DNA of 64,000 nucleotides from Phycisphaeraceae bacterium. GTDB lineage: Bacteria > Planctomycetota > Phycisphaerae > Phycisphaerales > Phycisphaeraceae. The stretch is taken from assembly GCA_963674705.1 (NCBI GenBank), contig OY771506.1, forward strand, positions 2,784,001 through 2,848,000, read 5' to 3'. A model generated the notes under the pieces. That model saw nothing but the letters and a program-made list of their open reading frames with translations, was not told the DNA's origin and ran no database searches. A program made the translations under genes and the position numbers. Position 1 is the stretch's first letter; each line of letters starts with the position of its first letter. This document shows, piece by piece, positions 8,592 to 15,754 of the stretch.

Positions 8592-10220
<1,629 letters not shown>

Positions 10221-10422
10221 TAATCGCGAGCCGCGGCCCATCGCCGCGGTTCAACCTGATCGACGTGCATTTGAAACCCCAACCCGTTTAGCCCCGCAGC
10301 TTGCTGCGGGCACGGGCCGCCAAGGCCCGATCAATAAAAGGCTTCGGTTTAATAAACACCCGGTTATAATGGAAACATCATGAAGAACCACCCGGGGCCG
10401 GGATACAATCCGAAGTAACCGC

Positions 10423-10459
10423 AAACGGCGGGACGGCTGAAACGCTGTCCCGCCGTTTT
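10423..10459 (+). terminator. Terminator-like hairpin just upstream of the DUF5343-like gene
   Basis: AAACGGCGGGACGGC / GCTGTCCCGCCGTTT followed by TATATTT. Confidence 0.55.
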
Positions 10460-10476
10460 ATATTTAGGAGATTAAT

Positions 10477-11199
10477 ATGGCAAAGAAACGTACAGTAAAA
10501 AAGAAAACTTCAAAAAAGAAAGCCGCGAAAAGGGCTGCGAAAAAGAAGCCAGTGTCAACGAGCTCACCAAAGCTACCATATACGGTCACCCCAAATGCAC
10601 TTAGGAAATTTTTAAAATTTGTTCCAGAGAAACCTAAGCCAGAGAAGGTAAACAATGAATTACTGTCGGCATGGGAATTAGGTGGTAATAACGCGAATTC
10701 AATTATTCGGGTTCTAAAAGCTATTGGATTAGTATCGTCGGCAAATGATCCCACTGAGGACTACGAATTATTTATGCACCGCCAAGGTGGTCCTCAGCAT
10801 TTAGCTAATCTTGTACGAGTAACATATAGACCATTATTTAATGCATCTCATAATCCACACCAGGAATCCGACGATTCGCTTAAGAATTTGTTTAATATTC
10901 ACTCTGGTGGATCTGAGGCTACGTTGCAACACCAGATTGCCACGTTTAAGACGCTCTGCGAGTTTGCTGATTTTTCTAGTGCCATTCCAGAGGGAGCGGT
11001 CGAATCAAGTGCAGCCGTCTTGAGTGATACTGGAGCTGCTCAGGCAGGCTCCAGTGGTATTGGGAACTCCGGCGGGGCAACGATTCACATAGATTTGCAT
11101 ATTCACTTGCCTGAAAACAAGAGCGCTCGAGACTACCAGGCGATATTCGAAGATATTGGCCGATACATTTACGGTCATGTGGGGTCTGCTGATGAGTAG
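10477..11199 (+). CDS. DUF5343-like protein with Lys/Ala-rich N-terminal tail
   Basis: LPY...PEKV...IIRVLKAIG...PT..Y...YRPLF and C-terminal IHIDLHIHLP...YQAIF match my recollection of DUF5343; AGGAG RBS; AT-rich. Confidence 0.7.
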   Translation: MAKKRTVKKKTSKKKAAKRAAKKKPVSTSSPKLPYTVTPNALRKFLKFVPEKPKPEKVNNELLSAWELGGNNANSIIRVLKAIGLVSSANDPTEDYELFMHRQGGPQHLANLVRVTYRPLFNASHNPHQESDDSLKNLFNIHSGGSEATLQHQIATFKTLCEFADFSSAIPEGAVESSAAVLSDTGAAQAGSSGIGNSGGATIHIDLHIHLPENKSARDYQAIFEDIGRYIYGHVGSADE

Positions 11200-11752
11200 T
11201 CAGATACATCCTGAAGTAGTACGTTTGTGTGCTGATGCGGCTGAGATTCGGAAAAAGTATAGTTGCCAGGAAGTTAGATCGGAGATGGGTGACGTTAGTG
11301 ATATTGTTAATGCATTAAATGAGTTTCAAGAATGTGTTCGATATCTTAATACACGCAGATCTCAAGGTGCTGTGCTTCATCTAGATTCGGAGGCTGATGT
11401 TCAGGATGCGTTATATTTGATGTTGCGTCCATGGATACCAGACTTATTAGAAGAAGATCCGGGGAGTCGGATTGCAAGCCGTTATACGATCAAAGATTTC
11501 GTGTCTGCACATTATAGAACTGTGATTGAGGCAAAGTATATTCGTGATCAAACTCATGGGAAGTCTATATCTAAGGAGTTGCATGATGATATCGAGACGT
11601 ATCGTCACCACATTAACTGCAGGCATCTTGTATTCTTTATATACGACCCAGATTCCTTAATCCCAAATCAACGATCACTGCGTGAGCAAATTGAAATATC
11701 ACGCACGCATGGATCAAAAACAATTTACTGCCACCTAATTGTGAAGCCATAG
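11192..11752 (+). CDS. PD-(D/E)XK nuclease, REase_DpnII-MboI-like
   Basis: EADVQDALY...EDP...IKDFV...VIEAK...ELHDDI..Y...LVFFIYDP; overlaps the upstream stop by 8 bp; AT-rich. Confidence 0.7.
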   Translation: MSSQIHPEVVRLCADAAEIRKKYSCQEVRSEMGDVSDIVNALNEFQECVRYLNTRRSQGAVLHLDSEADVQDALYLMLRPWIPDLLEEDPGSRIASRYTIKDFVSAHYRTVIEAKYIRDQTHGKSISKELHDDIETYRHHINCRHLVFFIYDPDSLIPNQRSLREQIEISRTHGSKTIYCHLIVKP

Positions 11753-11767
11753 CCGCAGACCGGGATA

Positions 11768-11920
11768 GGAAAAGGTGTCAGGGGATAGAGAAGAAACGGG
11801 GTCAGAGAAGAAACGGGGTCAGACCCCGTTTCCCCCTTACATGGGGCACAAACGGGAGAAGAAACGGGGTCAGACCCCGTTTCCCCCCTTACATGGGGCA
11901 CAAACGGTGTCAAACACCTT
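11768..11920 (+). repeat. Cluster of REP-like elements AAACGGGGTCAGACCCCGTTT / AAAAGGTGTCAGG with a ~51-bp tandem duplication
   Basis: Partial copy at 11788, full copies at 11805 and 11856; more copies at 12225-12250, 13049-13120 and 14553-14592. Confidence 0.85.
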
Positions 11921-11954
11921 ATGCCCACCTTATTCCCAAACAAAGGAGGTAATC

Positions 11955-12125
11955 ATGGAATTGAGTAATGCGGCCGAATCTAAGCTTCGCGATTGGTGCG
12001 GGCCTAATACTTGGCATACATCACATGACAGTGATATGGATCGGTGGTATGACTTTGTAGATCAATATCAACGTGATCATGGTTACACCATTGATGAAGC
12101 AGCATTGCCGGGTGCCACACTTTGA
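11955..12125 (+). pseudogene. Short hypothetical gene apparently truncated at a REP element
   Basis: AGGAGG RBS; protein-like MELSNAAESKLRDW...TWHTSHDSDMDRWYDFV; the frame runs into CGGGTGCC at 12109 and stops 17 bp later. Confidence 0.55.
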
Positions 12126-12143
12126 TCCGCAGGACAAGGTGTG
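12109..12143 (+). repeat. REP-like hairpin, family CGGGTGCCACACTTTG..CAAAGTGTG
   Basis: Second copy at 12322-12356; an inverted pair of the same family lies at 38828-38910. Confidence 0.75.
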
Positions 12144-12392
12144 AAAGATGGGCAGCGACATATGGCAACATCAAATAAACCATCAGAAGCACGTATGTTT
12201 ATGAGGTTGTTGTGGACAATATTTAAGAAGAAACGGGGTCAGACCCCGTATTAGGATCCGGGTAAGTAACAATCCGACAGGCCAATCAAAGACAGGGACG
12301 CATTATGCGAATGATCAGTGCCGGGTGCCCGCCTTTGACCCGCAGGCCAAAGTGTGCGATTGTGGGGACACAACATAAGAAGGAGATTGTCT

Positions 12393-12743
12393 ATGGGATA
12401 CGATTTACACATCACACGTGCGGACGATTGGTCTGAGAGTGAAGAGCATGCTATCACGCTTGATGAATGGCTGTCATATGTTGCATCGGACCAGGAATTG
12501 CATTTGCAAACACATGCGGAAGTTCAAACGCCTACCGGGACGCTGAGCTGCGATAACGAGGGGCTGGCGATATGGTCGGGAACCCAAGCAGGTGGTGCCG
12601 ATCCAGAGAATATTTGGTTCGATTATCGACGTGGCCGTATTGTTGTAAAGAATCCCGAAAAGCATGTCATAGCCAAAATGATAAGAGTCGCCGATCAACT
12701 GAAAGCAAAAGTCATAGGCGACGAAGGCGAACAATACAGCTAG
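12393..12743 (+). CDS. Hypothetical protein (MGYDLHITRA..W type, 116 aa)
   Basis: AAGGAG RBS; complete acidic ORF ending VIGDEGEQYS. Confidence 0.75.
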   Translation: MGYDLHITRADDWSESEEHAITLDEWLSYVASDQELHLQTHAEVQTPTGTLSCDNEGLAIWSGTQAGGADPENIWFDYRRGRIVVKNPEKHVIAKMIRVADQLKAKVIGDEGEQYS

Positions 12744-12747
12744 TGGC

Positions 12748-13048
12748 AAGAAAAGGGGATAAGTACATTTAAGAGGGCTAGGGGGCGCGGAAAAGGGGCC
12801 ATTCAACTTTAGTGCGTCGAGAAAGCCGGGGGCGGAAGTGGGTTCTGATCCCGCCCCGCGGGGCCGATACTGTTTCACTCAATCGGATACACTTATATAG
12901 CCGAGCGTGCCCCGACGTGGTTGGGGTTACATCGCTCCGTGTCGCACCATACTGCCTGAAAGGGCGTCCGCATGGCCAACAAGGATCAAAACAAGCGCAC
13001 CGACAATAAGAACAAACCCAAACTCACCGTCAAGGAAAAAAAGGAACG
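12748..13048 (+). repeat. 301-bp direct repeat, copy 1 (copy 2 at 13528-13828)
   Basis: Offset exactly 780 bp; 5 mismatches counted by eye. Confidence 0.95.
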
Positions 13049-13088
13049 AGGAAGAAAAGGTGTCAGGAACCAAATCGACGGGAGATGA
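12972..13088 (+). pseudogene. Truncated/chimeric copy of the small Lys-rich peptide gene
   Basis: Same protein sequence as 13752-13862 up to ...KEKKER, then continues into REP sequence (GRKGVRNQIDGR*). Confidence 0.55.
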
Positions 13089-13347
13089 AACGGGGAGATG
13101 AAACGGGGTCTGACCCCGTTTAACTCACAGGATCAGCCGCCGCGCCGGCCTGTATGGCAAGCCGGCACCGAAGGGTGTATGCAAGATGCACAACACAACA
13201 AAGCACAATCTCTTTGAACTGCTAGGCGATATCTGCCTGTCTGTTGCTGAATGCATTGTCGACGTCGTTACGCTATTATAATTCGTAGGTCCGCACTGCA
13301 CGGACACTAAGTTCTAAAAAGGTTGTATGACGTAACAGGAACACATC

Positions 13348-13542
13348 ATGCGAATGATCAGTGCATCGATATTCATGTTGGCATCGGCCGTGTTTTTCCT
13401 TGCGGTGCAGACGGCCGTGAGGCAGGATGAGTTGTCGCTGATAGGCGTCGGCGCTTCACTGATCTTGGGCATCTTCGGCGTCACGGAATACATCGTAAGT
13501 CTGGTGGAGAGGGTAAGAAAAGGGGGTAAGAAAAGGGGATAA
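13348..13542 (+). CDS. Small two-TM membrane protein whose C-terminus is supplied by repeat sequence
   Basis: CAGGA RBS; two hydrophobic segments; stop codon lies inside AAGAAAAGGGGATAA. Confidence 0.55.
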   Translation: MRMISASIFMLASAVFFLAVQTAVRQDELSLIGVGASLILGIFGVTEYIVSLVERVRKGGKKRG

Positions 13543-13828
13543 GTACATTTAAGGGGGCTAGGGGGCGCGGAAAAGGGGCTATTCAACTTTAATGCGTCGA
13601 GAAAGCCGGGGGCGGAAGTGGGTTATGATCCCGCCCCGCGGGGCCGATACTGTTTCACTCAATCGGATACACTTATATAGCCGAGCGTGCCCCGACGTGG
13701 TTGGGGTTACATCGCTCCGTGTCGCACCATACTGCCTGAAAGGGCGTCCGCATGGCCAACAAGGATCAAAACAAGCGCACCGACAATAAGAACAAGCCCA
13801 AACTCACCGTCAAGGAAAAAAAGGAACG
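13528..13828 (+). repeat. 301-bp direct repeat, copy 2
   Basis: Matches 12748-13048. Confidence 0.95.
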
Positions 13829-13862
13829 CAAAGCCCGCAAGGCCGCGGAGAAGAACAAGTGA
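13752..13862 (+). CDS. Small basic protein (36 aa) MANKDQNKRTDNKNKPKLTVKEKKERKARKAAEKNK
   Basis: Below the ORF-track cutoff; GAAAGGG upstream; host-like codons (AAG, AAC, GCC); the one difference between copies within the shared coding part is synonymous (AAA/AAG). Confidence 0.65.
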   Translation: MANKDQNKRTDNKNKPKLTVKEKKERKARKAAEKNK

Positions 13863-14024
13863 GTCTGGTGTCGTGAGCCAGGTGTCGGATACCGGATCCA
13901 CTCCCGACTTTTGCCATTAGCTCCCGAAGCCGTTGGCGATGAATAACTTGTAGTATAAGTTCGTGGCGTTCGGGCCAGGCCCGTTAATCCACATAGGGTG
14001 GTTACATGAAAGCCGGGTGGCACA

Positions 14025-14552
14025 ATGTTTCGATGGCTCTACCGGACCGGACTCATCCTGTTCATCATCGCAATGTTGATAGTGATCGGCCTCTGGGTAA
14101 ACAGCTACCGACGTGCCGACGCACTGACATTTCTTTTGCACACGGACACCAGCTACCGACTCCAGGCCGACCGCGGGCGGTTCGAGGTCTATACCTTTCC
14201 GCACCTTGGCGACAAAACATACTGGTACAGCTTCACACACTACACACCCAAACCGGGCGCAACGCGTCTAGACAAGCGGTGCACCCACCACGCATGGGGC
14301 TTCGGCTACACCGGGCAGAAGCAAGCCGGCCACATCTGGCCCGGCGGTGGTGATCGCATGGTCGACATCTTTCAACTCGTCGTCCCCGCCTGGGCGATGT
14401 TGGTCTTTTGGACGCTGCTGTTCGCCGCCTACATCGCAGCCGTTCGCAGGATTCGACGCACACACCGCCGCCGCCACGGCCTCTGCACCCGCTGTGGCTA
14501 CGACATGCGCGCAAGCCCCGACGCCTGTCCCGAATGCGGAAAGAGCAAATAG
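14025..14552 (+). CDS. Two-TM membrane protein with C-terminal zinc ribbon
   Basis: TM..WVNSY, loop, TM, then CTRCGYDMRASPDACPECG. Confidence 0.75.
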   Translation: MFRWLYRTGLILFIIAMLIVIGLWVNSYRRADALTFLLHTDTSYRLQADRGRFEVYTFPHLGDKTYWYSFTHYTPKPGATRLDKRCTHHAWGFGYTGQKQAGHIWPGGGDRMVDIFQLVVPAWAMLVFWTLLFAAYIAAVRRIRRTHRRRHGLCTRCGYDMRASPDACPECGKSK

Positions 14553-14768
14553 GATATGAAACGGATGGACGAAACGGGGCCAAACCCCGAATGGTTGAGC
14601 CAACATGAGAGGCAATTTATAGGGGAGCGGAAAAGGGACATTTTACTTTTAGCTAGCAAGTAGCATGGGTCCCATTCCGGGGCAGGGTGGGGAGTAAGAA
14701 TAGGGGATACGTACATTCATTTGACAGCGTAAACTGATTATCTTCTGCTGTAAGTACAACGATCGACC

Positions 14769-14816
14769 GGACCCCCGGACCCCCGGACCCCCGGACCCCC
14801 GGACCCCCGGACCCCC
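14769..14816. repeat. Tandem octamer (GGACCCCC)x6
   Basis: Six perfect units ending 10 bp before the next start codon. Confidence 0.95.
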
Positions 14817-14826
14817 AACCCAGGGA

Positions 14827-15588
14827 ATGCAGGCACTGGACATCACGCAAACTATTCTTGTTGCTTCGGCACTGGTGTTCGCCTGCATGGTGCAGGGCGC
14901 GGTCGGGTTCGGGGCGGGGATGTTTGCGATCCCGTTGATGGTCTGGGCGGGTGAGAGTTTGCCGGCGGCGATCACCATCACGATGGGCGGCGTCATCGTG
15001 CAATGCGGGTGGAACCTGTATCGATATCGCGGCCACGTCACGATGCGTGAGTTGATGCCGTTGACGACGACCCGGTTGCTGACGCTGCCGGTGGGTGTGC
15101 TGCTGCTGAGCGTCCTGGTGGGTCTGGGGACGGACCGCGTGAAGCAATGTGTCGGCCTGATGCTGTTGCTGGCACTATTGACGCAGTGGCTATTGAAGGT
15201 CAGGCCGCGTGAGCGGGTAGCATGGGGCTGGACGCTGTTGGCAGGTGGGGCGAGCGGTCTGATGGGTGGGATGGTCGGCATGGGTGGGCCGCCGGTCGTG
15301 TTATGGGTGATGGCGCATGACTGGCCTGCGAAAAAAGCGAGGTCGTTTTTATGGGGCACCTTCGTGCTGCTGATCCCATTCAACCTGTTGCTTCTTGTGT
15401 ACAAGTTCGGCAACGAAATTGGGTGGGCGTTGCTGCTGGGTTTGTGCCTGGCGCCGCTGGTGGTGGCGGGTTCGGAACTGGGCCAGCGGATCGGCGGGCT
15501 GATGAACCGCCATCGCTTGCGAACCGTCGCGCTCGGCTTCCTGCTGATCCTGGCCCTGGTCTCCGTGTTCGGTCCGCTGCTGCGTTAG
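14827..15588 (+). CDS. TauE/SafE-family (sulfite exporter-like) membrane protein
   Basis: VQGAVGFGAG and GLMGGMVGMGGPP repeats; about 8 TM. Confidence 0.85.
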   Translation: MQALDITQTILVASALVFACMVQGAVGFGAGMFAIPLMVWAGESLPAAITITMGGVIVQCGWNLYRYRGHVTMRELMPLTTTRLLTLPVGVLLLSVLVGLGTDRVKQCVGLMLLLALLTQWLLKVRPRERVAWGWTLLAGGASGLMGGMVGMGGPPVVLWVMAHDWPAKKARSFLWGTFVLLIPFNLLLLVYKFGNEIGWALLLGLCLAPLVVAGSELGQRIGGLMNRHRLRTVALGFLLILALVSVFGPLLR

Positions 15589-15754
15589 GATGCTTCTGGA
15601 TAAGGAGCAAAAGCTTTCAGCAAGCAGCATGGGTCACATTCCGGCGTAGGGCGGGTGTAGCGAAGCGACTGCTTCAATTGATGTTTCATGTCCGAACCGC
15701 AACGCACCATTATTGCGGGCATCACACATGACCGTTATCGAAACCGGCAAGGCC

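Follow-up and report, generated by a model that had tools for sequence, protein, structure and literature searches.

A gene mosaic behind groEL in a Phycisphaeraceae bacterium, with seams at terminal repeats of Y1 transposase genes and at REP-type ends

How does a patchwork of repeats and cut genes come to lie behind groEL, and do transposases take part in building it? This question is raised by a locus of a Phycisphaeraceae bacterium whose genome (G000) is a single contig of 5.54 Mb with 56.7% GC. The window, the whole stretch of 64,000 nucleotides that was analysed (G000:C1:2784001-2848000), contains a mosaic between groEL (8592-10220; window positions are used unless a contig or locus is named) and a TauE gene. 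A preliminary description had interpreted the interval 11760-14730 as a stack of segments, each headed by a hairpin of the repetitive extragenic palindromic (REP) type and moved one-endedly with its 3' DNA by an enzyme acting in trans. In the present study, we found that most of the repeats are terminal repeats of Y1/HUH transposase genes of the TIRYT type, in several families and mixed with two REP-type ends. The seams, 9-11 bases outside the TIRYT ends or at the 5' foot of the REPs, were probably made by Y1 enzymes that nick and rejoin DNA one-endedly in trans. We infer this mechanism from the identity of the ends, the fixed offset of the seams, the order of partial copies, and the differing content of the locus in relatives.

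The mosaic is real, but its proposed bounds were too narrow: the variable region begins at the groEL terminator (10426), reaches 15619, and takes in an additional end family (AGCAAGTAGCATG) as well as a remnant of an insertion sequence (IS) end. The repeat families are present at the positions named, although most of them are TIRYT terminal repeats instead of REP hairpins. The A, A2, C, and D ends resemble the TIRYT ends in the available passages of PMC3733652 and those of subclass 2.1 in the available passages of PMC6006769. The core GGGG[AT][CG]A[CG] is exact in A and off by one or two positions in A2, C, and D. Family B is a REP/REPIN with a GTGC foot, of which 42 inverted-doublet arms were counted, and the E end (AGCAAGTAGCATG) mostly runs into a GTAG REP. 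The GGGGATAAGTAC and GGTGTCAGG ends (C and A2, respectively) form no hairpin (z +0.7 to +0.8), which contradicts the claim that every segment is headed by one; among the 10 ends folded, clear signals came only from the A palindrome, the 11918 end, and a single D copy. A search of Rfam gave 5 weak matches, all far under the gathering scores. Most of the records carrying the C repeat are titled Phycisphaerae.

The catalyst had been expected in trans, and the 14 matches to PF01797 in the G000 genome all lie outside the window. Y1 genes flanked by the repeats of the mosaic were found for A, A2, and B in G000 and for C in a relative, G004. The A ends flank the genes at C1:291753 and C1:4511231 (the latter is out of frame near its start), the A2 ends flank that at C1:145192, and the B hairpins flank that at C1:13195. 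The gene flanked by C ends is intact in G004, and G000 retains only its last 64 codons. At C loci of other genomes, a Y1 gene lies within 1.5 kb of the ends in 14 of 75 loci, several of them overlapping, among the matches listed. The Y1 proteins have 227-237 aa, and the motifs NHWH/DHWH, YQG, YVERN, and W(R/Q)WSS were recognized by eye in most of them. None of the three Y1 proteins scanned gave a Pfam helix-turn-helix match at E<=0.01; a C-terminal extension is present. Another TIRYT, with GGTGTCGGATACC ends, is encoded in G004 (gene C1:3531124); it was not among the G000 Y1 matches, and its solo ends (loci L026, L035, L045, L048, and L065) yield filled/empty pairs. A Y1-like, apparently frameshifted gene was also observed about 2 kb behind groEL in G007, in the same hotspot (L017:8581-9135, minus strand).

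The seams lie at a fixed offset from the TIRYT ends, counted here from the first G of the core. Among 100 core matches (G000 plus 11 loci, palindromes on both strands), a head-to-tail partial copy, here called a stutter, accompanies 16. These stutters start at -9 (2), -10 (3), -11 (7), -12 (2), -13 (1), and -23 (1); 14 of the 16 starts, which fall in differing flank sequences and include one pair representing the same event from both strands, are at -9 to -12. The test is blind to starts nearer than -5, and none was found at -5 to -8. In other genomes, for which 80 C loci were fetched and 75 were used after 5 duplicates were dropped, at least 111 distinct C ends in at least 75 loci included 12 stuttered ends, all starting at -9 to -12 (control, 1/620 positions). 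The seam position is biased to G, which occupies -11 in 78/111 and -10 in 80/111 C ends, among the matches listed. In the case of B, 59 solo rows were obtained, of which 28 were judged by eye to be chance; GC directly precedes 17 of the 31 solo copies with a hairpin and 2 of the 42 doublet arms. These data fit the guide rule in the available passages of PMC8266576, extrapolated to a GTGC foot.

A comparison with G004, a close relative that is about 95% identical and colinear, gave a second measure. We compared 50 loci chosen around repeats (765,740 bases), which contained 412 alignment boundaries. Near non-palindromic terminal inverted repeat (TIR) ends, 9 of 25 boundaries fell at -12 to -8, a window taken from the stutter test, and they represent 6 distinct events; other windows of equal width contained 0.92 boundaries on average and 4 at most. 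In windows chosen after the data had been seen, and thus as weaker evidence, palindromic A had 13/30 boundaries, with a mirror peak on the other side, and the 5' foot of B and E had 4/10 and 7/15, respectively. Four control repeat families were at about background (1/11, 1/16, 0/3, and 2/13). The enrichment of breakpoints at 5' edges of repeats was beyond chance in both the stutters and this comparison. Individual events are also informative. At L025, a 151-nt difference stops at -10 of a C end, and at L034, a different transposase allele is joined at -9 behind a 76-nt tandem or remnant of the first allele. At L065, a solo end of about 37 nt lies in an empty site and carries the flank of its donor. 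Two stretches, one of 425 nt at L033 and one of 780 nt specific to G000, have an end at their start and run up to -10 of a resident end.

All four gene cuts that had been named are present, and three of them are true truncations. The open reading frame (ORF) at 11955, cut at 12109, corresponds to profile positions 1-51 of 92 in a family of mostly 88-108-aa proteins, and its C-terminal half was found neither downstream nor elsewhere in the genome. As the second half is missing downstream, this seam is one-sided and does not represent an insertion; simple insertion of B into the gene was ruled out. The family had no Pfam match, and there was no usable Atlas match for the homologue P0002. P0003, a homologue from another source, has 51 aa and stops at the same residue. 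In the case of the MRMISA gene start cut at 12322, the match to the copy at 13335 ends at 12321, and the 12972 peptide, cut at 13049, has a full 36-aa copy at 13752. The ORF at 13348 does end inside a repeat (about 13528-13542) and may be truncated; its only match among 35-112-aa proteins was itself. The MRMISA start at 12292-12321 is a partial copy with the full one 3' of it, as is the peptide copy at 12745-13048, and partial copies are always arranged in this way. Of the aborted copies reported in front of repeats, those at 11788, 13082, and 13513 are exact and that at 14553 is imperfect.

In relatives, the groEL-to-TauE interval differs in both content and order. G004 shares 12236-13048 and 13510-13989, and holds segment X (Table 1) twice, elsewhere; the parts 10470-12225 and 13990-15618 are missing from G004, where other genes are present and an A palindrome contains a PF01609 IS. 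In a third strain (run X1), the MRMISA gene lies behind an A2 end that is itself preceded by a B tail. The groEL terminator is retained in 8 genomes, each of which has a different AT-rich gene (37-47% GC; translations compared by eye) directly after it, in what we call the first slot. A + end follows this slot in all seven genomes with contigs reaching that far, as a variant end in G007 and G019. Among the first slots scanned with PADLOC, 3/6 matched defence-associated models (G000, G009, and G001); the slot of G004 had no match, nor did any of 9 further slot proteins.

Not all of the passengers have come from elsewhere. In G003 and G008, the basic-peptide segment is found 1.3-4.5 kb behind groEL, and in G008 it also follows an rsgA gene; thus, the peptide gene is an old resident. 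No passenger of the array has a second copy behind the same end elsewhere in G000, where only repeats and two matches of about 50 nt were found. Apart from the transposase gene itself, only short pieces were seen to move between loci as an end with its 3' DNA. As no passenger recurs and the peptide segment is resident, many seams represent pieces duplicated, deleted, or replaced locally, and some passengers were not imported but arose by duplication of resident DNA in place. The proposal that hairpins with 3' DNA were moved one-endedly and stacked here is supported by the Y1 enzymes in trans and by the seams at 5' edges, but not by the passengers; the ends act as joining sites more than as carriers.

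These observations can be combined into the following model. A TIRYT enzyme would nick one strand about 10 nt 5' of the core, and the protein-linked end would be rejoined to almost any DNA end. If the 3'-OH at the nick were extended over the end for n bases and then rejoined, stutters and tandem copies of 11-304 nt would result; joining to another 3'-OH would truncate genes, replace pieces, or delete DNA on one side. Copies that are palindromic or double-ended could act from both sides and place DNA 3' of an end. A foreign gene would be brought in when such a join on one flank is paired with homologous or illegitimate recombination on the opposite flank. The locus would be used by at least two classes of enzyme, and the B enzyme would likewise cut at GC steps, between G and C.

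Several points weigh against this model, besides the windows of A, B, and E chosen after the fact. The loci were picked around repeats and one close genome was available, and 16 of the 25 boundaries near TIR ends lie outside the range of -12 to -8. In 8/8 genomes, no repeat end lies at the left seam of the first slot, and no cognate gene was found for the D and E ends. Where filled/empty pairs are bounded by direct repeats (L033; 12745-13524), homologous recombination may have removed the DNA. In another genome, three whole elements that are 97-100% identical differ at -10 to -6; thus, whole-element moves leave that flank behind and one fixed cut is insufficient; a staggered pair of cuts, or a flank taken from the target, may be involved. 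We found no biochemistry of subclass 2.1 in our searches of the open-access literature.

A passive hotspot, in which ends of miniature inverted-repeat transposable elements (MITEs) or REPs insert independently wherever the DNA behind groEL tolerates them, the enzymes only disperse the ends, and slippage, homologous recombination, and groEL-anchored exchange make the mosaic, is a possibility that we take seriously while doubting it. Solo ends do enter empty sites (L038, L048, and L065), recombination between repeats would also break at their 5' edge, the first slot varies though its left seam has no end, and a DDE IS also targets the palindromes. However, simple insertion would have kept the rest of the cut gene downstream, where that of the 11955 ORF is missing. 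Slippage predicts no start fixed at -9 to -12 across flanks and families, and the control repeats had no edge enrichment.

The orientation of the ends bears on the alternatives. The non-palindromic ends between 11774 and 15622 are on the + strand in 12/12 cases. To this extent the claim that all repeats are on the + strand is correct, but the GGGGTCWGACCCC palindrome is strandless, and minus-strand edges were used at 13117 (offset -9) and at 11918 (with its own minus-strand stutter), so that DNA can come to lie 3' of a palindrome. Outside the locus, only 15/25 adjacent ends are co-oriented, as would suit a passive hotspot; the 12/12 co-orientation is peculiar to this locus. Replication strand as a general cause was rejected, because only 24/55 solo ends outside the locus are on the G-rich (lagging-template) strand. 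The groEL terminator was also considered as a minus-strand TIR end and rejected, being single-copy in G000.

The co-orientation with groEL would rather suit a gene-accretion system in the integron sense, which is possible. In its broader form, which we consider unlikely, the TIRYT ends would be a landing platform free of integrase and attC, where several HUH enzymes in trans insert pieces of end plus DNA at resident nick sites and turn over a genus-wide slot for defence and accessory genes, as an HUH counterpart of the integron with random 3' ends. Integron-like capture proper, in which units of end plus gene are excised or copied as single-strand cassettes, put in at the nick site of resident ends, and kept as an ordered array of accessory or defence genes, seems more doubtful still. 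The + end after the first slot, the stretches of 780 and 425 nt that stop at a resident end, and the AT-rich, partly defence-associated genes of the first slot agree with capture. Against it, the units lack a fixed 3' end and often contain cut genes, a second G000 locus with a passenger behind the same end was not found, the peptide gene is resident, and the catalyst is unlinked to the locus in both G000 and G004. A strict polarity with the newest units near groEL was rejected, since unique and shared blocks alternate.

That the patchwork is an artefact of assembling repeat-rich sequence is scarcely credible: none of the listed contigs covers the whole stretch and one contig of run X5 links 12847 with 14352 on the opposite strand, through either a genuine inversion or a chimera, but unitigs of runs X3 and X4, probably from the source sample, bridge the seams with 0-1 differences, the blocks occur in other arrangements at 89-98% identity in G004 and run X1, and the duplicated copies have diverged from each other (98% and 90%). 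The patchwork is genuine, and the earlier worry about an artefact is largely refuted; run X2, with a small share only, was not used as evidence.

Table 1. Features of the variable region behind groEL in G000 (window positions)
Feature	Position	Strand	Remarks
groEL 3' terminator-like hairpin	10426-10459	+	Conserved left border of variable region; single copy in genome
First variable slot: DUF5343/PDC-M34A-like gene and DpnII-MboI-type restriction endonuclease-like gene	10477-11752	+	42.6% GC; other genes here in 7 relatives
A2-type TIR end, core GGTGTCAGG at 11774	11764-11787	+	Same type flanks Y1 gene at G000:C1:145192
A-type palindromic TIR end: 17-nt partial copy, 51-nt tandem unit from -10 (11805, 11856), then minus-strand end (core 11918) with own stutter	11788-11940	.	
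5' 51 codons of ~92-aa hypothetical protein	11955-12108	+	Cut at B repeat; rest absent
Solo B-type REP, GTGC foot and hairpin	12109-12143	+	Family flanks Y1 gene at G000:C1:13195
A-type palindromic end	12225-12259	.	Opens block common to G004 (12236-13048)
30-nt partial copy of MRMISA gene start	12292-12321	+	Cut between G and C by B repeat
Solo B-type REP	12322-12356	+	
116-aa ORF, no Pfam or PADLOC match	12393-12743	+	Common to G004
Partial copy (98%) of C end, D end, and basic-peptide gene	12745-13048	+	Starts at -10 of C core; cut at -10 of next A2 core
A2 end, then stuttered A palindrome (13082-13126)	13049-13126	+	
Segment X	13127-13311	+	Joined at -9 of palindrome's minus-strand edge; two copies in G004, other positions
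MRMISA gene, 64 aa, ends inside C end	13335-13542	+	Also in third strain (run X1) behind A2 end
Stuttered C end, D end, full 36-aa basic-peptide gene (13752-13862), DDE IS-end remnant (13925-13982) at decayed A palindrome	13510-13989	+	
175-aa membrane protein, C-terminal zinc-ribbon-like motif (below Pfam cut-offs)	14025-14552	+	Absent from G004 locus
Stack: decayed A end, D end (core 14635), E end (14655), C end (core 14703)	14553-14717	+	
TauE/SafE gene, 62% GC	14827-15588	+	Absent from G004 locus; closest congener matches in other gene contexts
E end	15619-15660	+	Colinearity with G004 restarts here

Some further features of the region were observed. A 12-codon ORF at 10380-10418, just before the groEL terminator, has short Pro/Gly-rich look-alikes (8-10 codons) in G003, G009, and G019, and is a candidate leader peptide or decayed remnant. 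A decayed end-like motif may be present at 13311-13334 (core 13321), whose -10 position is the point where the homology of segment X stops (13311). Ahead of TauE lies an 8-nt tandem array (14759-14822); the intergenic DNA of G000 is rich in 7-8-nt tandem arrays and in many other REP-like families. The PF01609 DDE IS of G004 (L011:4021-5531) interrupts the A palindrome at its centre and is accompanied by an 11-nt duplication, and remnants of PF01609 IS ends recur at A copies in both genomes (G000:C1:293750 and 3501188; window 13925-13989).

Integrons and clusters of attC sites lacking integron-integrases (CALIN) carry short, co-oriented accessory genes between repeats, vary among strains, and lie downstream of a strong promoter region. 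The locus likewise has co-oriented short accessory genes between repeats that vary among strains, and it too is downstream of a strong promoter region. As had been stated, it does so without attC sites or an integrase: TIGR02249 was over its cut-off in 0/2 genomes (best, 76.8 bits vs 265), and no pair of attC cores (RYYYAAC..GTTRRRY) 30-130 nt apart was found on either strand of 11701-15700. Precise cassette ends are absent here, and three genes are cut at seams. Since it has no IntI and no attC cores, and its genes are cut, the locus is not an integron.

In IS91/ISCR elements and Helitrons, HUH chemistry with one precise and one variable end mobilizes adjacent DNA, and this locus is somewhat similar in all three respects. 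In contrast to those elements, the enzymes here are IS200-fold Y1 proteins (PF01797), and their inverted-repeat ends are usable from both sides; no ori/ter pair was seen, and a search for IS91-type genes was not made. One-ended rolling-circle transposition of this kind is named as an analogy in the available part of PMC3333891.

For the REP-associated tyrosine transposases (RAYT, or TnpA-REP), the available parts of PMC3333891, PMC8266576, and PMC5581495 describe 5'-phosphotyrosine nicking and strand transfer. As far as these parts go, nicking, extension, and rejoining is the published model for amplification of bacterial interspersed mosaic elements (BIMEs) (PMC3333891, Fig. 7B), whose authors foresaw the capture of flanking genes or fragments, and cut sites are readable from the repeat foot (PMC8266576). 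Like REPINs, family B occurs as doublets, and its copies flank a RAYT of their own (C1:13195). However, the foot of B is GTGC, in contrast to GTAG/GTGG; the TIR-end seams lie at a fixed distance with only a G bias, in contrast to scattered CT sites; and genes are turned over on a kilobase scale at this locus.

The closest comparison is with TIRYT, or TIRtron (Di Nocera 2013, PMC3733652), which equals TnpA-Y1 subclass 2.1 (Quentin 2018, PMC6006769), according to the passages available. In those of PMC6006769, this subclass is the second largest class of Y1 HUH proteins, present in 14.9% of strains, and has about 238 aa, the motifs NHxH, FQ/YQ, YxxxN, and SS (Table 1 of that paper), and a C-terminal helix-turn-helix domain. 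Our Y1 genes of 227-237 aa likewise lie between inverted ends with a GGGGWSAS-like core, and the ends are also dispersed as singles, dimers, and groups. Unlike our locus, the available passages of PMC3733652 and PMC6006769 contain no cut site, stutter, gene truncation, or mixed-family gene array, and we found no report of the cut site, stutters, or such arrays of TIRtrons in our searches of the open-access literature. This locus and its relatives supply a predicted, G-biased cut position some 10 nt outside the core, a partial copy 5' of a full copy as the signature of the reaction, and filled/empty pairs. If our reading is correct, TIRYT would represent a sequence-tolerant single-strand joining activity, its enzymes would generally give rise to gene exchange, duplications, and one-sided deletions in hotspots of accessory genes, and accessory genes could be turned over without an integron.

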